NCBI GenBank assembly: GCA_002633005.1
Contig: NMRA01000045.1
Coordinates: 1,233,552 to 1,297,551 of the forward strand
Direction of reading: 5' to 3'
Source of the DNA: Phoronis australis
Lineage: Eukaryota > Animalia > Phoronida
DNA length: 64,000 nt
Positions 16,201 to 64,000 of the stretch are shown in pieces. Each line of letters starts with the position of its first letter. Within the stretch, counting starts at the first letter, position 1. A program made the position numbers and the translations under genes. The notes beneath the pieces were generated by a model. The model was not told where the DNA came from. It was given only the letters and a program-made list of their open reading frames with translations, and ran no database searches.

Positions 16201-19200
16201 GTTCCAAGCCTGGAAGTCGGACCTATTTTGACAATGGTAATATTTGGAGCTAATTTCATAGTAGTGAGTGCTCTTAATTAAAGTTGGCTACTGTGGTGGA
16301 AAACTAATTCATATCCTCTTAAGGTATGCTGCTGTCTATGCAAAACATGTGTATACCTCTTAAGTGAGTTACCTTTAAGTGGTGCTCTTTGTTGTTTCCA
16401 GAACCGTGGAGTCCAATTGATCATGAAGCCAAGAAGTCGTACGATCGGGACTTTCTTTTGGGTCTACAGTTTGTTGATAAGTCGCTGGAGAAACCCGATG
16501 GCTTACCTCAGCTGTCTGAAGTTATTTTAGATAAGGTAGGTTGTGTCAGGGCTTATGTGTAAAAGCTCATTAGTTAATATTATCTTGGGCAGCTGTGAGA
16601 AAAAAACAAATCATCTAATTGTTTGGTATTGTACACTTGCTTGGCAATACATCCTCAGAATTAAAGGGTTCCAGAACTATGGGGTAAAGGAATGGTAGTC
16701 TATGGTTTGCGAAATCTGATAGACTCGCTGTGTTATTTAATGCTTACAGGTTGTCATGATATTCATTTATTTCAGCCAATCCTGGCCAGGAATGAAGCTG
16801 ACAGGGGGGCAATGCCAAAAGGAGGTATTGTTGACTTCACACCTGGCTATGTCCGGTCTCCACGGGTAAGTGAGTTAAAATGTAGTTGAAGGTCTCTGAA
16901 TAAACTACCATTCTTGTGGCCATTGTTTTTAACACTGTTCTGCCTGCACATGATAATTTAAAATTAGTTGTTTTTGCATCGTCACACAATTATAGACAGT
17001 AGGTGATATAAAATAAGCGGTAACTACTGTATTCTTAACAGGTATCATTAACTGCTCTTGCTAGACATTAGGTTTGCCATTTGAGTGAAGGCTCAAGTAC
17101 TAGCAATAGACAAGTTATTTAACGTTAATGTTACAGGGAAGTATGGGTGGTGGTGGCAGGCGGTCTGGCCAGAGAGACCGGGGCCCTAAACCCCCTAAGG
17201 TCATTAATCTCCCCATTGATAAGAAGGAAGACGTACAGCTCCACCATGCGGAGAATGCCTGGAAACCTGGAAGCTTGAGGAAGGCTGACGATGACCCGGA
17301 AGTCCTCAAAACTGAGGTATTTGATTGTGTTCCCTTTGTCTATTCTGTTGCTGCAGAACCTGTTATATGAGCCAGTCCTGAATGTTTAGAAAATCTGGTT
17401 TTCTATTGGGTTGTACTAGTCACATATTGGAAATATGTCGTCATTTGTTTGACTTTCTGTGTCTGTCTACATTTTTTGGGTTCTCTAATGTGGCTCTCAG
17501 GTTCTTGTGAAACTTAAATACAAGCAAAGGTTCTCAAAAGGACTTTCTCTAGTGTATCAGTGTTGAATGTGCACCACAGCTTTGAACCACAAAAGCAATT
17601 AAAATTCCTACAACCATTATCAGTTGTTATGTATCTGTGTCGAATGTTTCAGTGACGTGTATTGCACTGCTTAAGCTTGGTCGAAATTTTTGCCTGAAGC
17701 CATTTAGTGCATGCACAAGAACCATTTCTTAATTTATTTCCCATCATGCCTGTTAACTATAACCTTACGTCTATTTCACAGGAATTGTACAAGAGAGTAC
17801 GCAGTATTCTAAACAAACTCACACCACAGAAATTCCAGACCTTGGTCACCCAGGTCCTTGACCTGACTATCGATACGGAGGACCGCTTGTCAGGCATCAT
17901 AGACCTTGTGTTCGAAAAGGCCATCGATGAACCTAATTTCAGTGTAGCCTATGCAAATATGTGCAAATACCTTATGCAGGTTGGTGAACAATGTTCATAA
18001 GGGCTGTTCCAGCAAAAAACGTATGGGAGGATGGGAAGGCACTTTCATTTTTTACCCACAGCCCAGTTTTTCTTTTATTTCTCTAACCCATGACCCATAA
18101 TTTTTAATCAGGTAAAAATATAAAATACAACTTCCCATAATATTAAATTATGCTTGAAATGTATATGGTTAAATTAGGTTTTATTCTCTTAAGATATTTT
18201 CGGTCTTCAGTGTTTCATGAGCCCACAGCGGTCCAGCAGACACATCATCGGCTCCCTCTGAGGCAAGGAATAAAAACTCGGGCATGCTTTCCAGTGAAGA
18301 GTGATAAATGAATTAATGAACAGGAATTTTGTTATGTGCCCTTCTTGTGCATTGCAAATGGCAGATGCTAAGAGTGCTCATTATTTCAAATTTCCTACAA
18401 GAAGGAACAACACTTCTTAACAAATTGCCTCTATGATGACAGAAAAGCACTATCTGTGTTGTCGAAAACTAAAGCAGTCGAGAGAGTGGTCAAATCAAAA
18501 CGAAAATCGACTTCTGTCCGTGCATCCATCCCTGCCGTATATCTTCGTGCCAAATTTCATCCAGTGGTGCCAAGCAGGTTTTGAGATAATCTACCTGTCT
18601 TGTCAAAAACTAAAATGGCCAACAGTAGGTGCTGCAGTAGCCAAATCTGTCCGAAAAATGACTGGCGCCGTCGCATACCAGCCATCTATCTCTGTCAAAT
18701 GGCATGATCCATTGAGCGCGTTTTCAAGATAATTGACGGACAAGCAATGACTTAAGCAGTGAAAGCCTAACAGAGTGTGCCACAGTTGTTGAATCTGTCC
18801 AAAAATTGACTGGTGCCAGGACATTTTTGTCATATACATCTGTATCGAATTTCATCGTGATCTCTCAAGCAATTTTTGACATAATGGGCTTGTCGAAAAC
18901 TAAAACTCCCAACATTGAGTACCACGGTAGCCAAATTCGTCCAAAAATCGACCGTCCAAGTACCTCTATATCAAATTTCATCATGATCCGATGAACGGAC
19001 AGATGAACGGATGGACCGGATGCCGACTATATGTGGGTGCAGAAAAATTCCAAGTGAGATCAACTCGTTTCATCAGAAACTTGCTTTTCACAAAGACACC
19101 TGTGAGCAATACTTTAGGCAGCCACCAGGTGTCTATTTCCACCATGTGTCTCTGTAATTTCAATAACATTTTTTCAATTTCCAGAATCTATGAATTTCAA

Positions 19201-22200
19201 AGTGTTTCCACGAACACTCGTAGGCTGCTATGCCAAATGAATATTGGAACTTTATGTGTTAGCACATTTAGTGTTGCAATAATTTTCATTCTAATATGGC
19301 TGTACAACCTCTGCCTGTAATCAAGTTACCCATGACTTGAGTAAAGGCATAGTGTACATATTGCATTCTGTACACTGGTAACGTGGGCTTGCTTTGATGT
19401 TTTGGGTATTTTTGGGCATCTGCCAAGTGAATTTTTGGTGAGTTTTGAATTTTTTTCAGATGGTATTGAGGTCATGTTTGACCGAAAATACCCACCTGTC
19501 GACATTTACCGGACAAAAATACCAACCACTTTTAATGATATACTTCCCATATTTTAAATTTTCTTCAAAAGACAACCACATAATTTTTATTTCAGCTGTC
19601 AGTCCCCCTCTGCCCTCCCATACGGATTTTGCTGGAGCAGCCCTTACGATAACTTCTGTTCAATTAATGATTTTATTGACTACTGAGGATTTTAAGACAG
19701 TGTCAATGTAAATGGGACTTATGTTGGGGGTTATTTTTATTTGCAGTTTGAGCAGTTTGTAGAAACAGAATTTGAATGCTTCTGTAGACACTTGTAAATC
19801 ATTGTTAATTGTCTCACTAATCTTTTAGCCCTGGCTTCGACTGATTCAAACTTCAAATTTGAAATGAACAGATCGTGTAGTATTAGGTTTGGTCAAGTTC
19901 ATTTGTTTATTATGCACCCACATGTTTATATGAGGGTGTGTTATGCCGCCATCCCTGTTCATCCGTATGGCATCTGTTGCGCTATCTCCAAAACCCTTTG
20001 ACGTATGTTCATGAAATTTTACAAAATGTTTCTTTCGTGGATGGAAAGGCGTGAGCTAAAGTTTGGACAGATCTGGCTACCAGTGTCCTCCTAGTGGCAA
20101 TTTTAGTATTTAGGTTTCTTCTTTCTTTGGAGGTCCTTAATAGATTTTCATAAAATTTGGCTAATAGGTATCTATAAGAGAGGTATTTTGCGCCACCTAT
20201 TGATCATTTTTACTGTTTTTGTTTGGTGTCCACCCCTTTACCAACCAAACCACTCTAAGGATGATTGGGAGAATTGGTATATATGTTCCTACTGTGAAGA
20301 GAACGGCTGGCGACGATTTTCGGTTGAATTTGACTGCTGTGGCACCTGCTAGTGGCAGTTTTTTTGTGTCCTTCACTGTATCTCCAAAATCCTGTGCAAG
20401 ACCTTTGTTAGTTTGGCAAGGCTATTTGTAGAACCATTCGTCATCTGGAAAGTTTTCCTTTACTTGTCATTGGTCATTACAAGCCCTCGTGTTTGATCCA
20501 ATAGGTAAAAGTACCCGCAAAAGACAAACCAAATGAAGTAGTTGGCTTCCGCAAGCTTTTACTGAGCAGATGTCAGCGAGAGTTTGAAAAGGATGCGTCT
20601 GAGGAGCATGACCTTGTCGAGATGCAGAAGAAGGTTGATGCGGCACCCAGTGTGAGTATTCACGTGACCAATAAGTACAGGATTTAATATAAACAAGCAT
20701 GCTTAGTTGCTTGAATTCTGACTTTGTGGTATTGCTTCATGCCTTGCAGTTAGATTTGAAAATTTCCTTGTGTGAATTGTTATCCATTCTTTGAACAACG
20801 TCAATTGAAAAGTAAATTGGTTTCTTTTTTAAAAACTTATCAATTTTGTTCCTTGCCCAAGAGCAATATATGATAACCAGAAAAGTCGTTCATGTCTTCC
20901 TGAATCCTAGAAGTCTCCTTGTTGACCTTGTCCGATAACCAAGTCATTAAGCGACTGAACTGGATTATCTTAGTACCATTTGAGTTTTGGAAAAAGTATA
21001 CAGTACAGTTCATGCAAAACTAATGAAGAAAATGGGGTGGTAATTCTAAGATATATATTGTGCTTAACACGTCATTTGCCCGGCATGTCCTGTCCCTGGG
21101 TCTACAACACAGTAACATGATGATGTCATAGTTCAGCTGATCCTCATGCTGTATAAAACTTTCGCCCCTATCTGACACTGTGTTGGACTTACCTTGTGGC
21201 CGGCTGGTTTGTTGTTTGTGCTACCGACTTTTAATTAGTGTTCTTTCGTTCATTAGGAAGAGGAAAAGAAGAAACTCCAGGATGCATTGGAAGAAAAGAT
21301 GTATATGGTCAAGCGAAGGTCACTAGGAAATATTAGGTAAATATTTGTCTTTAATCTTGTTAATGCAGCGAATTTCGAACTTCAATTATGAGTTTGGTGT
21401 TTATTCTTTAACTAACGAGTGCGTAATTTGAGTTGCAGTTTCAACACATAATTGAGCCACTGTCACGTTTTGGCAAGACAATAGGCATTTGCTGCTCAAA
21501 CTGGCTACTAGGGTATTAACTCCATCAACTGTTCTTTTAGTCCATGTGTGAAAACTCTTTAGTCCGTTAATATTACTCACAGGTTCATTGGAGAGCTATT
21601 TAAGTTAAAGATGTTGACAGAAGCAATCATGCATGACTGTTTGCTCAAACTTTTGAAGTCCATGGATGAAGACAGCTTGGAGTGTCTGTGCAGGCTATTA
21701 ATGACAATAGGGAAAGATATAGATCATGAAAAAGCAAAGGTGAGTAAATTCCAGTACCAAGTGTGCTTATGTTTGCATTACGATTTGAGGTTTGACTACT
21801 TTTTGGCACTGAGGTTGTTACAAACATAATAGAGAAGTAAGTCTAGGGAATGTGAACCGTCAGTCTCATTCAAAACTGTGGATGCGTCACTTAAAACAAT
21901 GAAAACAACACAGAATAAGCCCACAGTATTAAACACAGCCTATGAAACACCATTGAGTTATAAACTAAATGACTTGACTAAGCGAAATACAACTTTCAAG
22001 GTCACAAAAATTGCCGAAGTGGCTGCACCCACTAAAAGTGTGACCTACAAAACATGCGAAAGACACAAAACTAGCCGCCGTGAAAACCACAAATACCAAC
22101 AACATTCTCAGATATCTAGCAGTACAGTTACAAAACTATAAACATACTCAAGTGGTAATGAACATGCATTGCATTATCTTGTAACAAGCTACACAGCACG

Positions 22201-25200
22201 TCTGACTGTGTCAAAAGGTGCAGGTAGAATGCCCCAATCCAGTCACAAAATTAATAGATTCACACTTACTAACAGCGCCCCCAAGCGGCAACTGGCAACA
22301 CCAGATGCAGTCAGCAGACATACACCTGAAATGAAAAGCTTCCATAACAGAGGTTAAAGTTCTGTGAGCTGTTTTACATGTAAAAAGTAATGGTAATGAA
22401 CATTGATTATTTGCTTGCAGCCAAGGGTTGACCAATATTTCCAACAGATGAATAAGATTGTGATGCAGCGAAAAACATCTGCAAGGGTCAGGTTCATGTT
22501 ACAAGATGTCATGGATTTACGCCAGGTTTGTGTTCGGCATTTGGCCGTGTTTATTATTTTAATTGTAATTGACATAGTTTAACATTTTGTCACTTGGCAA
22601 TGAGGACGCGTAATGTTGTGATTGCTACATATGATCATTTGATATACGCTATTCTGAACCTTGTTTAGATTGTAGTTCAGATACAAAAACATATATGGAA
22701 TTGGGGTTAGAGAAATTATGGTCATGCAATTTTCTTCAGAGTAATTGGGTTCCTCGACGTGCAGATAATAACCCCAAGACAATAGCCCAGATTCATCAAG
22801 AAGCTGCCAAAGAAGCTCAGGAAAAGACCATTTTGGCCCAGCAGAACCTGGAAAAGGCAAAGAAAGTTGGCAAAGAGAGAGGAAGTAAGTTTGAAAGGGT
22901 TGTGTTCGATGTGATGTATTGTACATTACATTGTGTGCTGTGTAAAATAAATAATGTAAATTTGTGCTTCACACACTTAAGTTAGCTTGTGCAGTGAATT
23001 GGCTTGGTGGTTGAGACTATTTCAGGCAGTACTTAATGTTGATTTGTAGTTTTCTTGGCAGTTCATGTAGAAATAAGTTGTCATTAAATGAAACTGCTGT
23101 TATATGCAACAGGTCGTGATGAAACTGGTTGGAGTACTGTGAGTGCCTCAAAAGCTAGCCGGATAGATCCTTCCAAGATGAAGATCTCTAAAGTGAGTCT
23201 CTATGCTACAGGTTGTCCCAACAATGTACTCACACTTCTGATGGTAGGGTTTGTAATCAGCTCCTCTGGATGAGACTGTGCTTGGCCCTACTGTACGATT
23301 ACTCCTTGTTATGCGCCCACATATTTATATGTGGACGCATTATGCCGTCATCTCCGTCCGTCCGNNNNNNNNNNNNNNNNNNNNNNNNNNNNNNNNNNNN
23401 NNNNNNNNNNNNNNNNNNNNNNNNNNNNNNNNNNNNNNNNNNNNNNNNNNNNNNNNNNNNNNNNNNNNNNNNNNNNNNNNNNNNNNNNNNNNNNNNNNNN
23501 NNNNNNNNNNNNNNNNNNNNNNNNNNNNNNNNNNNNNNNNNNNNNNNNNNNNNNNNNNNNNNNNNNNNNNNNNNNNNNNNNNNNNNNNNNNNNNNNNNNN
23601 NNNNNNNNNNNNNNNNNNNNNNNNNNNNNNNNNNNNNNNNNNNNNNNNNNNNNNNNNNNNNNNNNNNNNNNNNNNNNNNNNNNNNNNNNNNNNNNNNNNN
23701 NNNNNNNNNNNNNNNNNNNNNNNNNNNNNNNNNNNNNNNNNNNNNNNNNNNNNNNNNNNNNNNNNNNNNNNNNNNNNNNNNNNNNNNNNNNNNNNNNNNN
23801 NNNNNNNNNNNNNNNNNNNNNNNNNNNNNNNNNNNNNNNNNNNNNNNNNNNNNNNNNNNNNNNNNNNNNNNNNNNNNNNNNNNNNNNNNNNNNNNNNNNN
23901 NNNNNNNNNNNNNNNNNNNNNNNNNNNNNNNNNNNNNNNNNNNNNNNNNNNNNNNNNNNNNNNNNNNNNNNNNNNNNNNNNNNNNNNNNNNNNNNNNNNN
24001 NNNNNNNNNNNNNNNNNNNNNNNNNNNNNNNNNNNNNNNNNNNNNNNNNNNNNNNNNNNNNNNNNNNNNNNNNNNNNNNNNNNNNNNNNNNNNNNNNNNN
24101 NNNNNNNNNNNNNNNNNNNNNNNNNNNNNNNNNNNNNNNNNNNNNNNNNNNNNNNNNNNNNNNNNNNNNNNNNNNNNNNNNNNNNNNNNNNNNNNNNNNN
24201 NNNNNNNNNNNNNNNNNNNNNNNNNNNNNNNNNNNNNNNNNNNNNNNNNNNNNNNNNNNNNNNNNNNTATTTCACATTGACCTCTGTATTTTCATAGGTC
24301 TTCAGGTGTATACTTTGTGTTACTTCGTGACTATGAAGGAAAAGTTCCAAGTAGAAATTTGTTTCTGGCATTCTAATGCTGTGCTAATCTCGTATGTTGG
24401 TAAATTTGTTTTTAATTCTATGTTTCTGTGGTGCTTTAAGCAACTGATGCATAGGATGTGCTTGTATTATGAAGATCACTCACATTTTGAAACCTAACCT
24501 ATTGAGGAGACAATGACCATGCCTTTCCATTTTGCAAAGTACAACATACTACATATATGCCCTCTACTGGCCACTTTATGGTACCAATAAACAACCCTAG
24601 AAGGATACCGTATATACGGTGCAATTGTGGGCGCATTTCAACGCTCTGCGTTGCTCTTGTTGTGAAAGTAGGCAGTGGAGCCATGACTTGCTGTCTGTTA
24701 AGGAATGGTAAACAAAGGACACTGATCAAAAATTTATTGCACAGTGCTACTGGAAACTCAAAGATGCCAAAGAACTGCACAGTCAGTCAACTTCACGAGT
24801 TAATCTAGGATGCACTTATTTTGCTTTAAAGTCAGGGTTCTTTTTTTATTAACTTTTCTTAAATTTAAACTAGTTAGCTTGTTCCTAATTCAATAAGCAA
24901 GGTTGTCATTTGAGGGTGGGTACATTTTGGGACACCCTGTAGTTCATTATTTATTTTGGGTTATGACCCTAACCATTATGGTGTCATCTGCCACTGTTGC
25001 GAAAGTATTTCATGTGAAGTGGTTTGAAAGTGTAATAAACACTCAATGCCTTCTTACATGCATTTTGTAGATGCTAAAACCTTGTAAAAATGCACAACTT
25101 TTCGAGATAGTGAGTCATTCTTAACTCATTCGATTCAGCTCATATGGGTGCTAGCAGTTATATCCTAAAAGAAATAGTTTAGGCAAACTGCATTTTTCCA

Positions 25201-28200
25201 CCTCTGCAAAAGCTGAGTGCTGAATCTGAGGTGTTCAAATTCTAGTACTTATGTGGAATTAGCAAACTGTTAGTTTTTTTTATGGGAATCTTTTTTGTGA
25301 CTGACCGCAAGATGGCACCTCATTTCAAGTTTATATGAATAACTTTCTGAGGTTTTTGCTAGTTTCTGCTCTATCGGGACACAATACGTGATTTTCAAAA
25401 TGTGATCTCACATTGAGTATTCTATAGTATAAAGAATCCATATTGATGCCTTCAGCGTATAATTTTTGCTTGTTCTATTTAGCAAAATGTTGACGAGAAT
25501 ATCCAGCTGGGTCCTGGTGGCCGTCCAGGAGCGTTTGGTGCTTGGGGGCGTGGCAGTAGTGGAGGTGGTAAGCAGCAGGCCCAGGAGAATGACAGACCAT
25601 CCACACCTGGCAACAGGTAAGCTAATTGCTCAAATCAGTTTTACAGTTACCTGCATGAATTGATATTTTCTTGTGTCCGTTGATTAGGCAGTAGTAAGTA
25701 ATGAAGTCACCTATGTTGTGTCTGTGTTGCACTCCTTCTTATAATAAAACCAAAAGCAGATCCTCCTGTAATTTATACGTCTGTCATTTCATGACAGTTT
25801 CTTGAATACATGCTTTTTTCACTGGCTGCCTTCTTTTTGTGACTGTGGTAAAGTTTTTGACACATCAATGCAAAGTGGGATCTTTAGTCATCACACAGTT
25901 CCGTCTGAGGTACAGTGTTGTTGTTGCCATTAGTAACCGAGTGTTACCTGTGCAGGTATGCTGCTCTTGGCGGTGGATCAGACATGGATAGGGGCAGAGG
26001 TGTAGGCAGAGGCATGGGCTCGGGTCGTGAGTCACCGAGGCCTAGCAGAGGCTCTTTGGGGTCAGCAGCTAGTCGTGGCAGAGTGCCATCAAGGCCTTCA
26101 CAAGAAGATAAAGACAGGCAAGCTGCCATCAACGCTGCCAGGTGAGTGGATTCTGAAGAGATCTTGTTGAATGTAGATATATTTTGCTCAATTTTTTTGT
26201 CCCTAGTTTTCCACTGAACGAAGCTGAAATCATTGTCGAAGTACAGTTGGTACCATTGACTGATGTCAAATAAGGCTCATTCTACTCTTTTCCGTAGTTG
26301 AAAGCCTCTGTTCATAAGAACTGGTGAAGTGTTCTTTTCAGTCCGGTCAGAAATTTTAATCATATCACTCACTCAAAGGTTCGGATTCTTATTCACACAT
26401 TGATATACTTGCATGTGCTCTAGATCCATTGGACGCGGATCACGAGAGGGCTCAAGGGATAATAGTCGTGAGCCCGCACCCAAGCCAGCTACTGCAACTC
26501 CGCCGTTGGAGAAACAACAAGAAATGCCTGACGAAACTCTGATGAGGAAAGCCAAATCTATTATGGATGAGTTCTTGCATATTAATGATCTCAAGGTTAG
26601 TGTTATTTCAAAAAATTCTGTTGATATGTGTGTTGGGAAGTGGTACCAGTATGTTTAAAAACCGCCCAGTTTATTCATCGAATTACTTGTAGAAGCTGGC
26701 TCATTTTGAATATGTTTACTTTGAGAAGGACTGAATTTAAAGATACTGCTTGATAAAAGTGTGACTAGTGTTTCCAAATGGCGTTACTATTCCTAGGATT
26801 GTGCTGAATCTAGCTCTTGTATTCCTTTGGTTTTAGTTATCAGTTTGAACATGATAGTATGCTAGTCTGTGAAAAGCAGTTTCCCTACTTTTAGCTTCCA
26901 TTGTAGTGCTGGAAAATTGCTAGAAATTCTCAGAAACAGTTTCCGTTGTTATAAGATGGAGATGATCACCAAATTATGCATATGTTCTGTGCAAGACTGC
27001 ATGAAAGTGGCCAGGCTCTCATTTGCGACGTCATCTGGATGATCTACATTTGTGGCTGTCATTCAGTGCATTTGTCCTGAATTTTTGCAGGAAGCAGTGT
27101 TGTGTGTGAAGGAGCTGGGTAACTTGTCTAACATGCATGTGTTTGTCACACAATGTCTTAACCACGTCCTTGAACGGTCACAGAAGGCACGAGAACACGC
27201 GGGCAATCTACTTCATGATGTCGTCAAGTTGGGCTACATAACAGTTGACCAGTACATGAAGGGGTAGGCCATAAATTTGATCTGTGCATCTTCACAGTAA
27301 AATTAGTGCATTTTCAACTGAGGCAGGATAGCTTAACATGTGTATGAAACCCATAGGAAATGCATGGTAATGCCAGCATGACTAAGGTGTTAGTTTGGGA
27401 AATTGTTCCCAAGTGTTTGTTTAGCATTTATAATAAACTAAAAAAAGTGCAAATGACGTGATACCTTTTGTGATGGTCGTCCATTAGTTTCTGTTGATAA
27501 AAACGTACACGTAAATGCTGTGTTGATTCAGTCTGTGTTCTTTGCCGCCAGGTTGAAAGACGTTCTGGAGTATGCTGAGGACATGGAAATTGACGTGCCC
27601 AAAATCTGGGTCTACTTATCTGAACTTATTAGTCCTATGGTGCAAGACACAAACTGTGTACCACTCAGCTTCCTCAAAGATACGTGTCAGTCTCTCGTTG
27701 AAACTAATAAAGCAGGGAAACTTGTGGCTTCCATCCTTCACATAGCTAGTCAACGACTGGTGAGTTTGTGTTTACCGCTTCGCAGGTTGTTAATGTTTAA
27801 CAGTATTAATAGTCAGTTACACAGGGAAAACTTATGGATGGGGTTTAATGAAGTATGTAGCAGATTCTGAATGTAGGTATAGTACCAACTGGTTACATTT
27901 GGGGAATGGGGTCTGGTTATGACACTGTTAAATGCAAAATATGGGAAAGGTGCCGTTTAGCAACCTCGCTACCTTATCCTGGGCATTATCATGAATAAAC
28001 TAGAATCCAGTATGAGTAATGCTGGAGTGAATGAAATGTTCCTATTTGTAGGGAAGCAGTGTTGTTTTGAGAAGAACATTTGCTCATGGATTGCTTTCTA
28101 AATTAGCATGCCTTATGCGCAGATTTTCAAAACTTTCTCTATCACTACAGGGTCATCGAAGAGTTGGAGATTTGTGGCAACAAAATCAGTTGTTATGGAC

Positions 28201-31200
28201 AGACTTCCTTCCAAGTGATGTAAATGTCAAAGATTTTGTCAATGACAATGTAAGTAACTTTTTTATACATTTATTAACAGTGAGCACATTTACAATAACA
28301 CAAAAAGACAAGAACAACACAGATGCACACACACACACCTAATCCTCTTGACTACTAAGAACAGTTTCATTACAAAATTACACCATGTTTTTTGTACAAA
28401 TACTGTAGAATTCAAATCCTTACGAGCACTATACTTTTCACTATAAATGTAATATTGTTTGATGAAGTTAAAAAATCTACTTAATGGAAGTAATCTTCTT
28501 GAAGACCGAAGTTTTGGGTATAAGTGAACTCTTTACCCAACAATAAAACAATTTTTTTAAAAATTTTCTTATCAAAAAAGCCAAAATAGCATTGTTGCAG
28601 GAGAGATTGCCGACACTGGGGATTTGTTTTGTTTAAAATTTCATTATTAACTTTTGTCCAAAATGAATTTGCTATTTCACATTCCCAAAATAAGAGTATC
28701 AAAGTCTCTTTCTGTTTAATGTAAGTAACTTGTCATTCAGGTCCCACACAGAATTTGGGAAGTTTTGTTGTTGCACTAGCGTTCGTGTCATAGGGGTATT
28801 ATTTACGTTCCAAGTGTACAATGATTGGAATCAATGATCTCACTTGAACTCCATCCGTCTTATGAGTGCCAAAGTAGCATAGAGACTGTTCTGTGAGTAT
28901 CAAGTGTTGGTGATATCACATTTAAATTTTGCACACTCCGACTCGAATTGAGACATAATGCATGAACAGATATGCATCCTACATAATAATGTGCAACCAT
29001 TTGTGAAAAAGACTTAAGCCCTGATGTCGTACAATCGTTGCTAGTAGAATGTAGATATCTGGTGCTGCAGTTGACCAAGGACGTGGTTTTGCAATTGAGA
29101 TTGTGGTGTAGAACTGTACATAGTCCTTACAAAATAAAAGAACATATTTTTCGAGGGCCAATTAAAATTATTTTATTGATGGAAATGTAAGTATGTGCAT
29201 ACAGTGTGTGTGTGTTTGCGTGCAATCAATAAGATACCAAACTGAATCGAAATGTTTGAAAAGTCAGAGCTCTCAGTCCTATTGCAAGTATTTGACAAAT
29301 ATTTTTACTCTTTCGTGGTACCTTCTGGATTATATATTTCTCCTGGTAATAGACTTGTATTTATTCTAACTGGTACTTGGTTTACTCTGACAATCCTTAG
29401 ACACATGAACAACTTGCTGTGAATAAATGGCCATCAAACCTTTACTCGACACTCTGTTCAAACACTGACAAATCACATGCCACACTTGGGTAAAATTTTC
29501 AATGTGATTGGTTAATTTTCGAGTCGAGTCCTCAGCAAAGTTCAATGTTGACAGACTCCTGTTAAGTGGTCCTGATTTTGTGTGTGCATGTTGCTCCTGA
29601 TTTTCTGGTCGTTTGCTTTTCTGGTGAACTTGTGAAGTTTGTGAGAAAAGTTGGTGAAAAAGCAGGAAGGAGAAACGACGTCATGAATTGTTACGTATGT
29701 TGTGTCTTACAGAATGTCCAGTTTACGATGGAGGCTCAGCTTAGTCCACGTAGTGCTATTTCCATGGAAACCATCATTCAGCAGCTTGACAAACTTATCA
29801 TTCAAGATAACCTACAGAACACAGATGTCTTTGATTGGATAGAGGTAGTTTGATCTCGCTAGCTTGCTCATGGCTAAGTATTTCATGTTACTTAAACAAA
29901 AATCAGCCATGCCTTGATATATGGAGTATGATGAACAAGATAGGGTCATCTAAATACAATTGTTTTTCTTTTTGCACCTTGACATGCTCCTTTTCTAGTT
30001 CACTATATGTAAGTTGCATAAGTTACCTGAAAGCTTAAATTACCTGTAGTAAATTGGGACAGTTACATTTGACGGTTGAAAAACAAACAATGTGCACGAT
30101 GTCATATTTTATACATTCCAGTGTCTTCTGTTAATGAGCAAATCTATTAAATATGTATTTTATCAAGAATGCATCTTTACATTTATTAGGCCTACGTATC
30201 CCCATCACGAGCCAAAGACCCTCGATTCATCCGGGCACTAATGACGTCTGTTTGCTCAAGTGCAATTGTTGGTAAGCCTGCATGTCCTCAAATCTCTTGA
30301 TTTAACCCTAGCCACTTGTTAACATGAAGCAGAGGACATATGGTATTCACTATCGTCCTGTGGGGACCAACTTGCTCATGCTGGGACAAATACTTGTGGT
30401 TTCAAGTTCAATGTTTTACTTTCGTCACATAATGATTAGCGGTCGATGTAACTACAACTATGATTTTCTCGTAATTATAAGGTACCTGTTCATAATGACC
30501 AGGTAAAAATAGTGTACTGTTACACCCAGCAACCTCTAGGAGATGCTACAGGGTGATAATAAATGTTAATCAAGTCTTATTTTAAGGCAAAGTTTATTAT
30601 TTATTCAGTTGCTGTATTTGCAATCTAATGATGATTTATAATTCTCAGATAGAACTTCGTCTACTTTCGTATTGTACTGTTATTCTTATTAGGTGAAGGA
30701 ACTCAAAGGAAAGCGGATCCCAAAGTAATCAATATGAGGTCCATTCTACTGCAGCGCTACTTAGACCACCATGCTGAGCTAGAATTACAAGCCCTGTACG
30801 CACTACAGGCTCTTGTACACAAACTGCAACATCCTCCAGGTATAGTTCAGATGACAGAAAAAAAATTGAATCTAATACTGGAATTTGAAATAAAAACTTA
30901 ACGGAGACTGACGCAACGTCGCTAACTCTAGTATTTCAAATTCTAGTATTAAATTCATTTTTTCTGTATTTTCTCAGCTGTATGTCTCAAAACTTTCATG
31001 CTTAGTTCAGATTCCAATGCCAAAAGTGAACTGATGGATGAATCTATGGGTTTTGGTCTTATTCTGATTCTTTCCCGGTCTTATTGATAATGTCTAGGGC
31101 AGTAGCGGCTTCACTGCCATCTCCATTAAATTTTCGGAACTGCGAGTTGATCATTATTAATTTATGGGTACAGTAGGCTTACTCACGTTTGACGTTGAAT

Positions 31201-31534
31201 GCTAATGGCAGCAAGTAACAAGTTGTCCTATTTGACAAACAGCTACCATTTTGCTGACTGACTACTCATGACTGAAGTACTGTTTTCTAGGCTGTATATG
31301 CATGTTTTACTCAACTCACAATCTTGTCTGTCTGTTCTAGGATTATTGCGAGTGTTATTTGACACACTATATGATGAGGACATTATATCAGAAGACGCTT
31401 TCAAACAGTGGGAAGATAGTAAAGACCCAAGTGAACAGGAAGGGAAAGGCACAGCGTCCAAATCTGTTGTCCAGTTCTTCACTTGGTTAAAAGAGGCCGA
31501 CCCAGAGCCAGATGGTGGCGCTGCAACTAGTTGA
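7080..31534 (+). CDS. EIF4G: Eukaryotic translation initiation factor 4 gamma (eIF4G1/3-type), 29 coding exons, about 1,474 aa
   Basis: Manually spliced exons, all GT-AG and phase-consistent: E1 7080-7084, E2 7200-7278, E3 7871-7999, E4 9166-9327, E5 10305-10413, E6 11114-11337, E7 11658-12270, E8 12576-12646, E9 13584-13773, E10 16402-16535, E11 16776-16865, E12 17137-17316, E13 17782-17979, E14 20505-20651, E15 21257-21336, E16 21583-21739, E17 22421-22525, E18 22740-22884, E19 23113-23192, E20 25483-25616, E21 25956-26141, E22 26424-26595, E23 27091-27263, E24 27552-27759, E25 28151-28249, E26 29713-29844, E27 30190-30271, E28 30693-30839, E29 31341-31534 (TGA). Diagnostic motifs: [69 protein letters not shown]1-E2 are less certain, and an exon could be hidden in the N gap. 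Confidence 0.96.
9907..10006. repeat. (CAGTG)n pentanucleotide microsatellite
   Basis: About 20 perfect units; source of the spurious LHCTA/VQCSA ORFs. Confidence 0.97.
11114..11337 (+). CDS. EIF4G: eIF4G exon 6 with PABP-binding motif
   Basis: [22 protein letters not shown] (11203-11268) resembles the human eIF4G1 PABP-binding segment [23 protein letters not shown]. Confidence 0.9.
11658..12270 (+). CDS. EIF4G: eIF4G exon 7, acidic E/P/V/T-rich disordered linker
   Basis: Overlaps ORF 11754-12320; tttag acceptor and G|GTAAGG donor; phases fit the neighbouring exons. Confidence 0.9.
13900..14930. mobile_element. Interspersed non-autonomous repeat (possibly Helentron/HINE-like)
   Basis: Shares TATGCC(A/G)CCATCC, TTCATGAAATTTGGCAC and repeated CTAGTGGC/TATGTTCCTAC units with 19910-20460. 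Related starts occur at 23309 and 61280. Boundaries approximate; family assignment is inference. Confidence 0.5.
16402..16535 (+). CDS. EIF4G: eIF4G exon 10 with canonical eIF4E-binding motif
   Basis: [45 protein letters not shown]; YxxxxLL at 16440-16460; human eIF4G1 has KKRYDREFLLGFQF...KPEGLP. Confidence 0.95.
17782..22884 (+). CDS. EIF4G: eIF4G MIF4G (HEAT-1) domain exons 13-18
   Basis: [18 protein letters not shown]...[18 protein letters not shown]...[14 protein letters not shown]...[19 protein letters not shown]...[23 protein letters not shown]. Confidence 0.95.
18000..19644. mobile_element. Non-autonomous DNA transposon with about 30-bp TIRs and TA flanks
   Basis: Left TA|AGGGCTGTTCCAGCAAAAAACGTATGGGAGG; right CCTCCCATACGGATTTTGCTGGAGCAGCCCT|TA. 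Confidence 0.8.
19910..20460. mobile_element. Second copy of the 13.9-14.9 kb interspersed repeat
   Basis: CAAAACCCTTTGA.GTATGTTCATGAAATTT, TTTTCATAAAATTTGGC and GGTGTCCACCCCT blocks are shared. Confidence 0.55.
21105..21185 (+). ncRNA. SNORD80: Intronic box C/D snoRNA, SNORD80 (U80)/yeast snR60-like, LSU rRNA methylation guide
   Basis: C box ATGATGA at 21117-21123, D' CTGA at 21137-21140 and D CTGA at 21172-21175. Terminal 9-bp stem CAACACAGT/ACTGTGTTG. Guide CTTTCGCCCCTAT is antisense to LSU ATAGGGGCGAAAG and guide CATAGTTCA is antisense to TGAACTATG. The D box lies about 80 nt upstream of the 3' splice site. Confidence 0.88.
22595..22662 (+). ncRNA. SNORD54: Intronic box C/D snoRNA, SNORD54 (U54)-like, SSU rRNA methylation guide
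   Basis: C box variant ATGAGGA at 22600-22606 (as I recall for U54) and D CTGA at 22654-22657, preceded by ATATACGCTATT, antisense to SSU AATAGCGTATAT. About 80 nt upstream of the 3' splice site. Confidence 0.85.
23365..24267. other. Assembly gap (N run)
   Basis: 903 N following the start of a repeat copy ending in (CCGT)n. Confidence 0.99.
26424..28249 (+). CDS. EIF4G: eIF4G MA3 (HEAT-2) domain exons 22-25
   Basis: [25 protein letters not shown]...[22 protein letters not shown]. Confidence 0.9.
29713..31534 (+). CDS. EIF4G: eIF4G W2 (HEAT-3, MNK-binding) domain exons 26-29
   Basis: VFDWIE...[10 protein letters not shown]...[44 protein letters not shown]...[20 protein letters not shown]. 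Confidence 0.93.
30856..30967. repeat. Short inverted repeat (MITE-like hairpin) in the last eIF4G intron
   Basis: ACAGAAAAAAAATTGAATCTAATACTGGAATTTGAAATA ... TATTTCAAATTCTAGTATTAAATTCATTTTTTCTGT. Confidence 0.65.
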
Positions 31535-42567: not shown

Positions 42568-43596
42568 ATGGCTAGCAGTGATGCAGCTTTAGTAGGAATT
42601 CGAGAAGAGCTCACTTGTCCGTTGTGCCTGTTTGTTTTTACTGATCCCAAGACTCTACCTTGCTTACATTCATTTTGTACAAGCTGCATTAGTGATCACA
42701 TTGCTGCTACAGGAAAACATGGAAGATTTGAATGTCCGATATGTAAGACAGACATCATCATACCACCAGGTGGAGTAAGGGGACTGAAGGACAACTTTCA
42801 AATCAATAACATTGCCACGTTACTTCCATCTGAAGAGTGTTCAATGTGCCCTATTCACCCAGATCAAGAGATCACAATGTTCTGTAATGATTGTGAAATG
42901 CCATCATGCACACATTGTATGGTAGACCACAAGGAACATGAAATGGTTCAAACTCATGATATCAACCAACGAAACAACAAAGAAGTTGATCAACTTTTTG
43001 ACAGTGTAACAGCTAAGCTTAATTTTATTGATACTTCTCTTGAACTATTGACTGAACAAAGAGATTTGTGTAACAAGGAGGAACAACGCGTTACTCGTTT
43101 GATTTCTGAACACTTTCAAGAAGCCGAAGCTAGGTTAAGAAAGATGAAGGAGAGTTTGGTGAATGATGCAAAAGCGAAAATGGATGTGTTCCGTGGCCAG
43201 TTAGATGCTGACATAACCAATATGGAAGAAAGGCGTAAAAGGATAAAAGGAGCTGTTAAACATGTCAAAACTTCTCGTGAATTTGCAAGTGTGCATGACA
43301 AGCTTTCTCGACACAAATATTTTGTAAATCGTTTAAGGTTAGTTAATGACCAGTCTATAGAATGCAGCATCAACGAACCAGCTTTTGATGTGCAAACTGA
43401 AGATGTGTCCCTTGGATTAAAAGTAATAGTAAAGTCCAAACACCTGGATCTTAAGCACCCTGAAGATAGAAGTTGGAGCTCAGGCAATATGGAGTTGAGC
43501 ACGTCCGATGATAGTTGTGAAAGCATAGAACATGACACAGCTGGCCAGACATGTCACTTGTCAGATGAAGATGTTCGGTTGTATCAGGTGGTATAA
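42568..43596 (+). CDS. TRIM (RBCC) protein exon: RING-HC, B-box 2, coiled coil; no C-terminal domain of its own
   Basis: ATG at 42568 after a tttcag acceptor. RING CPLC...CLHSFCTSC...CPIC; B-box CPIH...CNDC...CTHC..DHKEH; heptad-rich helix. Ends either at TAA 43594-43596 or at the phase-0 donor CAG|GTGGTA (43588). Confidence 0.93.
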   Translation: MASSDAALVGIREELTCPLCLFVFTDPKTLPCLHSFCTSCISDHIAATGKHGRFECPICKTDIIIPPGGVRGLKDNFQINNIATLLPSEECSMCPIHPDQEITMFCNDCEMPSCTHCMVDHKEHEMVQTHDINQRNNKEVDQLFDSVTAKLNFIDTSLELLTEQRDLCNKEEQRVTRLISEHFQEAEARLRKMKESLVNDAKAKMDVFRGQLDADITNMEERRKRIKGAVKHVKTSREFASVHDKLSRHKYFVNRLRLVNDQSIECSINEPAFDVQTEDVSLGLKVIVKSKHLDLKHPEDRSWSSGNMELSTSDDSCESIEHDTAGQTCHLSDEDVRLYQVV

Positions 43597-57900: not shown

Positions 57901-60896
57901 GGTCAACGGCATCTATTGGTACATATGTGAACTACAATAACAGCCGATACTGCAGCTCGTAATTAAGTGGATTCCAGCAGCCACGCATGCCTTGGTCTTG
58001 CTTAATTAGACGGAATAGGTGCATGAATCACTTCTTTAGCAGACATGTGCTGTGACGTCGTACGTACTGTTTTCAGTGAGTCACCGACAAGTAGCGCTGT
58101 ACATAATGTTTTCTTAGAATTCCCCAGGCTTGGAAATCCCAGCGATCAACGAGGAAGCGGCGAATGATTGTGAGGTGGACTGACCAACAGCAAGGTTAAA
58201 GAAGTTTTCAGTGGGTTGAACTGTTTTTCCACTAGCTACATAATTCATCGATGCACCAGCAAACCTTGGAGTTCATAGGTTGACGGAAACATGTGGGAAC
58301 TTACGCCTCGTAACGAAACTCGGTCGATCTGAAAACAAAGCCGTCGCAACTGTTGTGCGTGAACTTGGAATCTTGCTTGAACTCAGGTTCCTGTATGCTT
58401 GAACTTGGAATTGAATATTCATTTGGACAATTAGGTGAAATTTTTGTTCAATGTAAAGACTTTTTGTAATTACTGGCCTCTGCCTGATCACCCATTTTCT
58501 CCTTCAGCATCATAACTTGTATCAGTAAAGAATCGGAGGAATATGTGAGTGGTTAAATCAATTTTTGCCGTTTGGTGAACAAGGTCGCCAATAGTTGAAC
58601 CAGGATTGATTAAGATTGCTAAGTAAACAACAACATATTGATCGTCGTCATTTTGACTTATACACCGCTGTACAGTGTACCTGTACGGTCTGTGTCACCT
58701 GAGTACTGGACTATTGGGAACTTTTGTCTTGATAATGGTTTAGACAATAAACTGCAACGTCGATCATATCATACATGTATATTCATATATGCCCTGATTT
58801 TAAAGCTCGTACTCATATTTTGGCCAAAAACAAATGTGATTAAAATTTACTTTATTTTAATAACATGTAATTTGATTTGGAACCGGCAGTTCAAATTTTT
58901 ATCAGCGTGAAAGTGATTATTTGGGCGGGCTTGTCAAGATTTCTCGTGTTTATCAAGTTCACGCATATGCAATCTTGTGATAAAGCAGGATTCCAAGTAC
59001 AGGCTCAGCATAAGAAGTAGCTGGTTCCCTGCTTGTCCGCTAATGGTCTACCTCCTTGTAGACACGCAGGGAACCAGCGAGTTGCAACAAAAGCGGACGG
59101 GTGAGACGTAAGAGTTAGTTCGTTTATAATACTTATTCTTCACATCTGAAACTTTTTCTTTGAGGTGCCAAAATTGTGTTTCATAGGGATGTTCTCGAAT
59201 CATAATCCTATGCTAAGTGGAAAAGCCGACGTTTATTTGATTGAATTTCAATAGGCGATCGAATGTGGCGAAACTTCATGTCGACCCTATCCGGGGTCGC
59301 AGCCGCTACTGAGAGAGAGGAAATAAATAATAAAATGCGGATTTTTTTAACGAAATCTAAGGATTTTGCATGTCCGACAAGTATGCAATTGCAGTACACA
59401 ATTGGAGGCTGAAACGACGGCAAAATTGCGATCTCTAGCTTTCAAGACCGTGACCTAAACGAAGTTGTGTTAAAATCTAACCGCCATGCTCAATTGAAAT
59501 CACGGTGAAGAGTGTTTAACTTGTAAATTCAAGGAAAACAGAATATGTAATTATAAGAAATTGATGGCGTTTGATTGTGATTTGGTCAGCCATTTAATTA
59601 ATTGTTTTATTTATATGTGTTTATTATGTTATTATTGTTATTATTGTTATTGTATAATGGTCTAATAAATTAATTAAATAGGCCTACATCGAGATCGCTC
59701 GCTGGCCTCGCCTGTCCGCTACTTCGACTGTTCGACTTTCGTTATGAGGTGAAAATTCCCTTATGCATGTTCCCGTCAACCTATTCCTATATTAAAATTA
59801 TACTCTTCTTTGTTTTTCTTCTTGAAGCACCAAAATTCATCAAGAAAACACTCAGTAGTGGACGTCACCTGGAGACACAATGTTGTTATTTAGAATTTAA
59901 AATTAAAAAGTGTATACAGAAAAAATGCATAATGCAGGTTAAAAACAGCTAAGTAAACTTAGTTTATGTCTGCGAATTATACAAGTGGCTGGTCCTGAAG
60001 CGTCAAAGGGTTCTTACACGAGTACCTATCTGTACGTTGTTTAAGAGCAGAACGATGATCATTCTAAGGACTATACAAGTACGCGAACATTAAGGAGAAG
60101 TACGAGTACTTTAAACAAATGTAGATTAAGCTCATTTCTACGTCAGTGCGGAACACTGCAGACTGTATTTGTTTAAGAAACCCTTTGGCGCTTCTTAAGG
60201 ACGCTTGTGTATGAACGCTATTTCGTAAACAACCATTTCTTGTTGTCGTTTTTTGTTCCCTGCCTCACGAGATGAACCTGTGCGTGGAGTAGTAGGCCTG
60301 AGAGGGGGAAACTGGTAGTTATCAAGGTACTGGCCTAATTCCGCTCGAACAAGCAACTGGCAAGCTCGGGTGCACTATCGGGCATTTGCTGAGTTCACTG
60401 GTAACCGGCCTAACGTTTCAAGCATCTCGTTCATCTCATTTGTGTCTCTTGCCAACGAGATTTGGCGTCCCCATCTCCCATTTAGCCACCTGAGAATTTT
60501 GCCACGTAGCATTTGGCAAGTTGAAGTTATGCGAAGCGTCAATCCCTGATGACATAGATGAATCCAGACAAAATATTGATAATGATTTACGAATTTAACT
60601 CGTTTTGCTCCCTGGCTGTTACTGATAGCTCTCATTAGAAAATTGTGATGCTGAGTCTAAGCCTCATTCTCAGTTCAGCAACGATGCATTTTGCTTCTAA
60701 GTTGATTCTAACAGTGTGACCTAACAGTGTGACAAGGGAGGAATTTACACATAGTGGAGTTTCATGGTTCAGTTCTCAGTTTTACACCTGACTGATTTAC
60801 TTGTAGGTTGACTGATTTTGGATGATGCTATTTTCATCGGTCAATTTTCGTGTATCAATCTCATCCTCATTCCACTGCTTTTCAGTTTCTGCAGCC

Positions 60897-61307
60897 ATGG
60901 CCAGCAACGCTTCAGCTTTGTCTGCACCTTTGTTAGGAATTCAGCGAGAAGAGATGACTTGCGCGATATGTTTGTCGGTTTTTACTGATCCGAAGGCTCT
61001 TTCGTGCCTGCATTCGTTTTGTACAAGCTGCATTGTTGACCATATTGGTAATACAAGTAGGCATGAAAAGATCGATTGTCCGATATGCAAGAAAGAGACC
61101 ATCATACCGCCAGCTGTAATGGGACTGAAGCTGCCTGCTCTTTACTCAGGGAAAGACGAACACATTTCGGTTGGTAACACGGAGCTGAAAGCCCCTGTAG
61201 ACACTACCAATCAGGTAGCAGGCCGTAAGGACAAGAAAGACTTGAAATATAAACACACGGAAGGTAGAGAAAACAGCTTTTTATGCGCCCACATTATTTC
61301 ACATATT

Positions 61308-61359
<52 letters not shown>

Positions 61360-63722
61360 NTTGTTTGGCTGTCCGCTTGATATTTCAAAAAACCCTGGTC
61401 GGATATCGATGAAATTTGGCACAAAGGTGTAGGACATCAGTAGAGCTGTTTGTGATACTTTTCCATCTGCCCTTCCCCAGGGGTCAGGGGAGTGGATTCG
61501 CCCACGTCATTTGTGTTTTATGGTGGATTCGACCACGTCATTTGTGTTTTATGGTGGATTCGCCCACGTCATTTGTGTTTTATGGTGGATTCGACCACTG
61601 CAGAGTCTCGTAGTGCCCATTTGTGCACTCTTACTGAAAGTCCTGAAAAGATTATTTATTTCTGACACGCTTTTGTAGCAAGGAAACCAAATTTGTAAGT
61701 TTTATGTGAAAAAAATGTGTTCCGAGAAAAATGCGGCGATCTCCGTTTGAAATAACGATTGGCAAAAAATGCGATCATGTAATTATGAAAATTTGGACTT
61801 TACTTTTGTGCACATAATAAAATAAATTCTCAGGTCATCAACGAATTTTAAAATCCATAATTACTTTCAAGGCTTTTCTATATGCGTTAATACTTAAACT
61901 GATCCTTGGTAAAGATAAACATCGTTTTCTTTGTGGCAAAGCTCTGTATACAGTCTTGTAAAATGTTTCTCGTGATGCTAAAATTTAGTAAGAGGGAGCG
62001 CCGGTGGATGGGCGACAGGGGAGAGGTATGTCGTTTCCACCCCCGTTGGCGTTGACAGATGGCTCCCGCTCAATTCTCTTCATGGTTCGATTTGTCCATG
62101 CTATGTAGTACTGTAATGAGCTTTTCCAATCTTGGAGAAAATTCTCATGAGAGTGGGATGAAGGTTGACCCAGTCACAATAGTGGAGGTAACAAACGTAT
62201 GTGTCCAAAGTTAGAATTCCGTTCCAGCTTTACTTTTTCATATTCTGATACAGGGATTTACTTTTTAAACGTTCCACTTCACTATATATCAACTCAAAGT
62301 TCAAACGGCTGTAGTTTGCATGCTGGGTTCCGATGATTATTTGTTCTCTTCCATTTTATAATATTGTTACCTCTATTTAAGTTACTTTTCACCATGATAT
62401 TACATGTTTGTACTAATTGTTGGCGTATGTTCAATAGCTCTTGTGTTGTGGATTTTGGGTTCATTGGTGAGACAAGTATTTTGCACAACTTTGCCCCTTC
62501 CCTTTGTGACATTTTCTGTTGATTTAATCGATGCTCTTTGATGACAGACGTTGCCAATTCCTTTGAGATTTGTTGTTTTACGACAGTACCACCAGAATAA
62601 TATTCAATTTCTAATGATATATAAGTTTATTATATTTCAGGAATGTCAATACCTTCATAAGTTGAAGTGACTACGAACTCACATTTTGCCGACGATATTG
62701 ACTTCTGATTTAGACCACTTGTCGCTATTACATGGGACTCGAGTAATTTGTGACAATTTGTTTTTGAGTGCGCGGCAAGACTTATAGAAGCTATCAGTTT
62801 TATCCAAGCCCCGAAGTCACCTATTTTGAGTGAACAATTTGAGACTATGCAATTTTTTATATCAAGTGATTTAAATCAAAAGTTGTCGGGTTATTGTGGT
62901 AAAAGAGGACTTGACAGGTTTTTTAGTTAATACACTCAAAACCACCATTTACCTCGCTTTGACAAATGACTACATTGTCAGCGTCATAAAACCTCTCTTG
63001 GCAGCGCGTATCACAACCGTGAATTCTGCTGTATCTGAAAAACCGTAGACCCGCGACTTCCGTTGAACGTTTTTTTAGCTCCACGGACACGAGTGAGGAG
63101 TATGGAGGTACACAGCACCAGTGTGTCATGTCCACAAACATGCGAGTTTCTTGTACAAACTTGTGCCATATCCGCGCTTCTCTGATGTCCCAGGAAACGT
63201 GAAAAGAGTCTCAACGTGGTCAACTATCAAGTTGTCACAACCACCTCGCCAATCTTCATTACACCACAAAACTTGGGAAAACGCGCAGCATTATCAAATG
63301 ACCTTTCACCCTAAACACAATGGAGAATGACTATAGTGCTGTGATTGCTTGTCCCGATTTTACGTGGTATATATCGACCAATAAGTGATTGTAACTTGAG
63401 ATCAGCTAATTAGCATATCGTTAGATACTGTTTGCAGGTGTACTAATTTGACAGTTGGTTGACTAGTGGGGATGTTTTTTGGTGATTTTAATATGAAAAT
63501 GGCGATTTGATTACTTAAACGGTTTTCTTCTATGAAAGACGCATTTATCACTCTTTTGCCTTAGAGTGGTACTCTTCGTTGTTTTCAGAATCACGGAGCC
63601 CAGTTGATCATGAAAACAAAAAGTCATACGATCGGGAATTTTTGTTGAGTTTACAGTTTGTCGTCAAGTCGTTGAAGAAACCTGATGGCTTACCTGAGCT
63701 CCCTGAGATTATTTTAGATCAG
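60897..63722 (+). CDS. Chimeric RING-eIF4G(eIF4E-binding) gene, locus B; continues past the window end
   Basis: Exon 60897-61263 encodes an intact RING-HC (CAIC...CLHSFCTSC...CPIC) fused in frame to the eIF4G E9 copy (...ELKAPVDTTNQVAGRKDKKDLKYKHTE), with a phase-1 donor. Exon 63589-63722 encodes ESRSPVDHENKKSYDREFLLSLQFVVKSLKKPDGLPELPEIILDQ (E10 copy). 63723-64000 matches the parental intron 16536-16775. Confidence 0.8.
61318..61359. repeat. (TG)n microsatellite inside an interspersed repeat copy
   Basis: About 21 TG units. Confidence 0.95.
61492..61598. repeat. 31-bp tandem repeat, about 3.4 copies
   Basis: Unit GTGGATTCG(C/A)CCACGTCATTTGTGTTTTATG. Confidence 0.9.
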
Positions 63723-64000
63723 GTAAGTTATATGAGAGCTTATGTATAGCCGAAAATGGTTTAAACTTGTCTTGGGCAGCTGTGAGTAAATGGCCACTCA
63801 AAATGCACTAGTTTTCTAATTGGTCGATATCGGTGTCACACTTGGCTAATTGTGAATAGATCGTCAAAATTAAAGGGTCGGTACTAGAATTAGTAAGACG
63901 TAAAGGATACGATGGTAGCCGATTGTTTACGCAATCTGATAATTCACTGCGTGATACATGTATGGTACCCACAGGCTGTCATGGCAATCAATACTTTCTT

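Follow-up and report, generated by a model that had tools for sequence, protein, structure and literature searches.

The 64-kb window analyzed here (64,000 nucleotides of Phoronis australis DNA with a GC content of 39%) apparently contains a real, transcribed and constrained chimeric gene at its 3' end. In this gene, the RING-coding part of a duplicated TRIM 5' block is joined in frame to a copy of part of an eIF4G exon, and the following eIF4G exon, which carries the bipartite eIF4E-binding segment, is predicted to be added by splicing. The reading that we place first, tentatively and at somewhat less than an even chance, is that the locus encodes a lineage-specific 4E-BP-like repressor whose binding segment is taken from eIF4G itself and whose RING, although folded, is weak or inactive. 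The features are collected in Table 1; the exon labels 9 and 10 are those of the original prediction, and the other exons are named by their coordinates.

Table 1. Positions in the 64-kb window of the chimeric gene, its source genes and the related exon copies.
Feature	Position	Strand	Basis or remark
Parent eIF4G gene	7871..31534	+	tblastn with frog eIF4G1 P0151: 16 matches, in order, 11149 to 31513
Parent eIF4G exon 9	13584-13773	+	
Parent eIF4G exon 10	16402-16535	+	
Neighboring TRIM gene	42568..43596	+	RING and B-box (Pfam), likely coiled coil; expressed
Five copied eIF4G exons	45175-45354, 45896-46024, 48000-48161, 48872-48980, 54702-54922	+	One 266-codon frame
Non-coding first exon, copy of TRIM first exon 37101-37258	58079..58210 (start approximate)	+	Self-BLAST 77-80%; joint to 60886
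Chimeric exon: 11-base leader, ATG 60897, TRIM-derived RING to 61130, eIF4G exon-9-derived tail	60886..61263	+	Acceptor seen in reads
C3HC4 RING core (residues 22-64), with the linchpin Lys after it	60960..61088	+	Pfam, ligands, model, Foldseek
eIF4G exon-9 copy (3' part): 44-residue linker, 7 lysines	61131..61263	+	29/44 residues identical to parent
Predicted intron, collinear with the parent exon 9-10 intron	61264..63588	+	Contains (TG)21 and one N, at 61360
Copy of eIF4G exon 10, bipartite eIF4E-binding segment	63589..63722	+	32/44 residues identical to parent
Canonical motif YDREFLL (YX4L-phi, Arg at position 2)	63627..63647	+	Identical to human eIF4G1 in the 5T46 alignment
Likely non-canonical motif LPEIIL	63699..63716	+	Aligned to ISDVVL of human eIF4G1
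Copy of the parent intron after exon 10	63723..64000	+	Alignment to 16536-16775

Self-comparison of the window revealed a patchwork of eIF4G and TRIM copies downstream of the neighboring TRIM gene. The coding part of this TRIM gene is a single exon, and its product was the closest relative of the RING half of the fusion, with 49 of the 73 RING-region residues identical. The region at 56.0-61.1 kb was found to be a collinear copy of the TRIM locus, in which an upstream piece, the first exon and parts of the intron are followed by the beginning of the coding exon. The TRIM-derived DNA extends to approximately 61130 (76% similar to 42582-42789), and eIF4G exon-9 DNA continues from 61131-61133 on (86% similar to 13643-13785), with the frame unbroken at the join, as had been predicted. 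An ATG in strong context at 60897 opens a 122-codon frame that reaches the donor at 61263. The two sources have AAG in common at the join, and the fusion may have originated when a deletion at this short microhomology brought the TRIM copy together with a partial eIF4G copy lying downstream. The exon-9-derived linker is predicted to be disordered and formed a low-pLDDT coil in the AlphaFold2 model.

The TRIM locus also showed several features of its own. Pfam recognized a RING and a B-box in the TRIM protein and no C-terminal domain, and the protein was absent from the exact-match protein collection. A possible weak phase-0 donor lies at 43587, two codons before the stop codon, and its use would keep the reading frame into the exon chain that begins at 45175; the joints listed from the RNA reads did not include one from this donor to that chain. 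In the coding exon, seven linked differences at 43354-43368 were carried by 15 of 15 reads of RNA run X6 and 12 of 20 reads of run X7, and these represent a divergent TRIM allele or another TRIM paralog. The first exon has an apparent GC donor (GCAAGT) at 37198, and the copy has GT at 58211. Both TRIM-type first exons start with a 15-base motif (37106 and 58084) that, in our view, resembles the CTCF core. On the minus strand at 33866-34516, a 216-codon frame gave no significant Pfam match; it resembles the C-terminal end of a LINE reverse transcriptase.

The structure of the RING half was assessed from its sequence and from a model. Pfam zf-C3HC4 matched with 37 bits against a cut-off of 21, and a residue check together with Pfam bore out the prediction of eight intact zinc ligands, with C22, C25, C37, H39, C42, C45, C61 and C64 in C3HC4 spacing. 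In the AlphaFold2 model, which was built on a 41-row alignment, RING residues 21-70 reached a pLDDT of 86-92, and Foldseek returned the TRIM2 RING as the best match (E 2.3e-5) and also matched the TRIM21 RING. The linchpin is a Lys after the last Cys, as in the neighboring TRIM; this position is R or K in 166 of the 219 RINGs among the matches. The fusion point directly precedes the TRIM C-terminal helix, which is LKDNFQINNIATLL in the neighboring TRIM, and this helix is removed; a Pro-containing coil replaces it in the model. The N-terminal flanking helix was absent from the monomer model, with a pLDDT there of just 58-59. Additionally, a coarse C-terminal-helix pattern, which fits 56 of the 219 RING tails among the matches and 4% of shuffled tails, fits the neighboring TRIM and not the fusion. 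Pfam detected no B-box in the fusion exons, while one was present in TRIM 42568-43593, and no coiled coil was found in the fusion within the window, where TRIM homology stops at 61130. According to two studies, TRIM RINGs without flanking dimer helices are inactive (PMC7752041, PMC11992055); deletion of the helices abolishes the activity of TRIM32, the helices are needed in other members too, and intact zinc ligands are no guarantee of ligase activity in the TRIM pseudoligases. One of these studies describes activity of TRIM21 as a monomer (PMC7752041). Judging from the model, the fusion RING is folded, but its ligase activity is doubtful and likely weak or absent.

The exon-10 copy gave a gap-free alignment with the human eIF4G1 peptide in PDB 5T46 chain B (E 7e-11), and the Tyr, the Arg at +2, the Leu and phi residues and the downstream hydrophobic residues all matched. 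The position and residues of YDREFLL were confirmed as predicted; its position 9 is Gln, as in human eIF4G1, and not R/K. The LPEIIL stretch, like ISDVVL, is what we take to be the lateral-surface motif of the 5T46 work. Only PF21140 (eIF4G) was matched in Pfam, below the cut-off for the exon-10 copy and the parent alike, and no homology of the copy to 4E-BP1-3 or Thor was detected there. In agreement with the earlier count of 12 differing residues in 45, 12 of the 44 whole codons change the residue relative to the parent. Over the 53 positions compared with the frog protein, the copy and the parent differ at 14, of which the parent is identical to frog at 7 and the copy at 1. Among the residues that the copy has lost are a conserved Tyr and a conserved Trp on the upstream side of the motif. 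The metazoan binding mode, as described in one report, consists of a canonical motif together with a non-canonical one, whereas N-terminal bracelet residues are a fungal feature (PMC6061780); because these residues are fungal, the Tyr and Trp losses would likely spare eIF4E binding.

The original prediction held that the fusion does not depend on a splice. This applies to the join between the RING and the exon-9 tail, but not to the eIF4E motif; the tail itself holds no such motif, which lies beyond a predicted 2325-base intron. Homology to the parent intron was found at 61921-61963, 61981-62392 and 63514-63588. The donor of the chimeric exon (AAG/GTAGAG at 61263) and the acceptor of the exon-10 copy (TTTTCAG/ at 63589) are both in phase 1, in accordance with the predicted phase match, and the phase-0 donor of the exon-10 copy (CAG/GTAAGT at 63722) is intact. 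The connection of the RING to the motif is therefore a predicted splice spanning an assembly N. The window ends a few bases before the expected acceptor of the next exon and the gene runs past it; within the 64 kb, no second MIF4G copy was found.

To evaluate constraint, we compared each part with its parent. The dN/dS was 0.30 for the RING region versus TRIM (73 codons, 95% interval 0.13-0.56, p 1.6e-4). The exon-9 tail (44 codons) gave 1.76, which is not significant, and exon 10 (44 codons) gave 0.24 (0.09-0.60, p 0.002); the value over all 161 codons was 0.40. These pairwise values include the parent branches, the ancestor being represented by the present-day parents, and selection may have acted before the fusion. 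The alignable introns diverge by 0.26-0.31 from the parents; over 932 positions they contain 37 gaps, 27 with a length not divisible by three. The exon parts, three in number, together have 3 gaps, none of which shifts the frame, and exon 10 is free of indels. In a neutral simulation scored for the start codon, open frame, ligands, motif and four splice dinucleotides, copies that kept all features numbered 25, 5, 1, 0 and 0 of 4000 at 0.10, 0.14, 0.20, 0.25 and 0.30 substitutions per site, respectively, and the chance of no frameshift is a further 0.001-0.03. Retention of the frame, the zinc ligands, YDREFLL and the splice sites far exceeds what neutral decay would allow. Residues of the copy were retained at 29 of 36 conserved sites versus 10 of 17 variable sites (p 0.09, with frog as the sole outgroup), and from these comparisons the copy appears constrained yet relaxed relative to eIF4G. 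The change of the first motif Leu codon from CTT in the parent to TTG in the copy is real, but we rejected it as proof of purifying selection because it is a single codon; the exon-wide dN/dS and the indel pattern carry the weight.

Transcription was examined in four public runs (X4 and X6-X8) of the eight listed, over 42000-61300, using 18-19% of each raw run. The X4 sequences are contigs, and although this run is labeled 'DNA?', it was treated as RNA because it shows several exon joints. A GT..AG joint from 58210 to 60886 was found in four X7 reads (2 starts), two X8 reads (2 starts) and one X4 contig, with none in X6 among the joints listed. A template-switch origin of this leader joint was considered and rejected, as a read without the shared G identified it as a GT..AG splice. 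The sense-strand depth in the bin 60676-61300 was 1.86, 1.73 and 5.08 in X6, X7 and X8, respectively, and reads over the RING exon share their orientation with those over the TRIM and eIF4G exons. Absence of expression, together with frameshift or stop decay just downstream, was to count against the original prediction; instead, we observed a spliced leader and sense-strand RNA over the RING exon. The scaled depth over the fusion exon was approximately 3, 3 and 8 in X6, X7 and X8. In X6 and X7, this amounts to approximately 6-7% of the parent eIF4G reads, so that global repression is unlikely in these samples. In X8, where the fusion exon was highest, parent-type eIF4G N-terminal reads (45952) numbered 2 versus 53 and 39, and the TRIM depth (42644-43287) was 1.7 versus 27-28 in the other raw runs. 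This X8 pattern suggests tissue- or stage-specific use.

An additional set of copied eIF4G exons at 45-55 kb forms a chain in which all splice sites are kept, entry is in phase 0 and a new stop codon follows soon after KRERK. This motif is reported to be responsible for PABP binding (PMC4174440). PDB sequence searches gave no match for the PABP-site exon 54702-54922. The dN/dS of the chain was 0.59 (p 0.03), and two of its exons differ by 3-4% from the parent versus 15-26% in the adjacent introns. Exon 45175-45354 was copied from the final exon ahead of MIF4G, and it is spliced to a copied N-terminal exon, which constitutes a circular permutation. The joint from 45354 to 45896 was present in all four runs, with 2, 2 and 11 reads in X6, X7 and X8; these counts track the fusion exon and not the upstream TRIM (27, 28 and 1.7). 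X4 contigs suggest read-through from the TRIM gene into the chain, and from its sequence the chain could be a PABP decoy gene of its own. An intron of the chain harbors an abundant spliced transcript on the opposite strand (51000-53330, depth 80-205, joint 52887-53317 with CT..AC). It carries many variant letters and is thus probably a multi-copy element; no Pfam match was found in the two frames tried.

Under the preferred reading, the duplicated TRIM promoter and RING exon would drive the in-frame fusion to the exon-9 copy, and splicing from exon 9 to exon 10 followed by translation would yield a chimeric protein. Its bipartite segment would hold the dorsal and lateral faces of eIF4E and would compete with full-length eIF4G, since no MIF4G exon copy was seen in the window. 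The TRIM-type promoter would confer sample-specific expression, and the RING, unless reactivated by a partner RING or by mRNP clustering, would be a zinc-folded module for interaction or turnover. Expression is low (a few reads, with less than a fifth of each run sampled), which speaks against such a decoy. In human cells, moreover, an eIF4G N-terminal fragment without PABP binding no longer represses, according to one report (10.64898/2026.04.06.716749), and the eIF4E site alone may therefore not suffice. A relation between the fusion and the 45-55 kb chain matters here, because the human repressor fragment needs both the eIF4E and the PABP site, and the nearby copied exons with a PABP-binding motif hint at a closed-loop repressor. 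The chain joint that tracks the RING exon would fit a further chain copy downstream of exon 10, although three samples prove little; against this link, the chain lies upstream in the assembly and has an in-frame ATG of its own at 45181. We consider it rather improbable that the fusion continues into a further chain of this type as a circularly permuted eIF4G decoy with the PABP motif after the eIF4E site. If true, the product, in the manner of the enteroviral 2A fragment, would clamp the cap and the poly(A) tail in a closed loop that is a dead end; its RING, switched on by mRNP clustering, would ubiquitinate eIF4E or PABP, and the gene would be a TRIM-promoter-driven translation shut-off device from eIF4G's own parts. 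A RING-capped eIF4G paralog, with MIF4G and the C-terminal domains beyond the window and a scaffold that promotes translation without the PABP region, is still less probable. The exon-10 copy keeps its phase-0 donor, the intron after it resembles that of the parent as far as the window reaches, and an eIF4G fragment lacking the PABP site is reported to be able to sustain translation. However, homology of the pre-MIF4G exon copy at 45175-45354 stops at parent position ~17437, ahead of the first MIF4G exon, which suggests that the duplicated block ends short of MIF4G; this evidence comes from a different copy, spliced to an N-terminal exon.

The repressor reading competes more closely with two others, both of which we regard as unlikely. 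In the somewhat better placed of these, the locus is a transcribed relic without a selected role: a TRIM paralog and a partial eIF4G copy were selected separately and joined recently, in frame by chance (1 in 3), and are read from the inherited promoter. The low read counts fit this reading, as do the assignment of 7 of the 8 polarizable changes to the copy, the unconstrained linker and the loss of the TRIM dimer helix; no relative among those searched carries the junction. In contrast, intron divergence is alike in both halves, as expected at a similar age; it is hard to see what use a partial eIF4G copy would have by itself, and nevertheless its exon 10 and splice sites are intact at a dN/dS of 0.24; and the fusion exon is highest in X8, where the TRIM and parent N-terminal reads are lowest. 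According to the other, the product is an eIF4E-directed E3 in which the motif docks on eIF4E and the RING brings E2-ubiquitin, so that eIF4E or its partners are ubiquitinated; it could act as a monomer, by pairing with the RING of the neighboring TRIM or by clustering on capped mRNPs. The eight ligands, Lys linchpin, TRIM2-like fold, dN/dS of 0.30 and flexible 44-residue linker agree with this, as do the monomeric activity of TRIM21 (PMC7752041) and the identification of eIF4E as a substrate of the RING protein cIAP1 and of CHIP (PMC5575267). On the other side stand the C-terminal helix that is now coil, the lack of a predicted N-terminal helix and the missing B-box and coiled coil, together with the cited cases of TRIM32 and the pseudoligases. 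We ranked the E3 below the decoy mainly because of the lost dimer helix; the RING constraint and Lys linchpin count against that ranking, as a passive domain need not keep them. Accordingly, of the originally proposed eIF4E-directed E3 or 4E-BP competing for eIF4E, the 4E-BP-like half stands, with its motif kept and the 5T46 match, while the E3 half is weakened. Finally, an artefact, in which the RING and motif exons belong to separate transcripts through a wrong join at N 61360 or a retained intron, appears very improbable. The single N lies beside (TG)21, and the donor GTAGAG is not a strong consensus, but the parent's own donor (GTACGG) is no stronger, parent-like intron flanks the N on both sides in parent order and the phases match. 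Additionally, four public runs from one study, possibly the source of the assembly, carry 85-93% of the sampled words of 60300-61290; no RNA run was among the holders of this region listed in the public-run index.

We compared the fusion with known systems. 4E-BP1-3, Thor, CUP and 4E-T likewise combine YX4L-phi with a downstream non-canonical motif, with no scaffold domains seen, and compete with eIF4G, as the fusion would (PMC6061780, PMC8558276). The fusion differs from the 4E-BPs in that it is a direct copy of eIF4G exons rather than a convergent mimic, carries a RING and has no 4E-BP Pfam match; the eIF4G non-canonical motif is reported to be weaker than that of 4E-BP2. TRIMCyp and fish ftr52 resemble the fusion in placing TRIM 5' exons and promoter ahead of housekeeping-gene exons, and ftr52 is proposed to stem from an insertion into a RanBP2-like gene (PMC3137616). 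PML, arenavirus Z, HHARI, TRIM22 and cIAP1/CHIP are RING proteins that repress eIF4E or mark it for degradation; PML, Z and HHARI bind the eIF4E family through the RING itself and cIAP1 through its BIR domain, whereas the fusion would bind through an eIF4G-derived motif, which is not described for these proteins in the sources consulted (PMC11185188, PMC5575267). The enteroviral 2A-cpN is an eIF4E-binding eIF4G piece without eIF4A/eIF3 sites and a dominant repressor; it is made by a protease and needs the PABP site, while the fusion is genome-encoded and has PABP-motif exons only nearby (10.64898/2026.04.06.716749). TRIM6, 15, 22 and 51 (class VI RINGs) share with the fusion intact zinc ligands and missing dimer helices (PMC11992055, PMC7752041). 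These pseudoligases are full TRIM proteins, whereas the fusion lost its helices by truncation at the gene fusion. Based on its sequence, the fusion likely works like a 4E-BP and belongs to neither the 4E-BP nor the TRIM family.

Database searches, which have little power for this lineage, revealed no second example of this architecture within their scope. Word-index protein searches with the RING exon confirmed 0 of 6 near-length and 0 of 242 longer candidates, and those with exon 10 confirmed 1 of 73, the frog eIF4G1, in an index that misses most eIF4Gs. Among the best 150 of 5826 HMMER matches, none contained an exon-10-like segment (best E 2.2), and the best stretch ended by query residue 100 in 147. 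A metagenome scan confirmed 0 of 329 pattern matches, and the ESM Atlas returned RING clusters only. No RING plus eIF4E-binding architecture was found in the literature searched, which is weak evidence, as most subscription journals lie outside it. To our knowledge, the known eIF4E repressors mimic eIF4G by convergence and the known TRIM chimeras swap only the C-terminal domain.

The locus appears to have made an eIF4E binder by placing copies of the binding exons of eIF4G behind a TRIM promoter and a RING. TRIM genes often have immune roles, and on this background a role in translation control linked to infection is a guess that can be tested. If translated, the gene would offer a natural test case for the origin of new translational regulators, for the question of whether an eIF4E site represses without a PABP site and for that of whether a RING stripped of its dimer helix can become active on a substrate.
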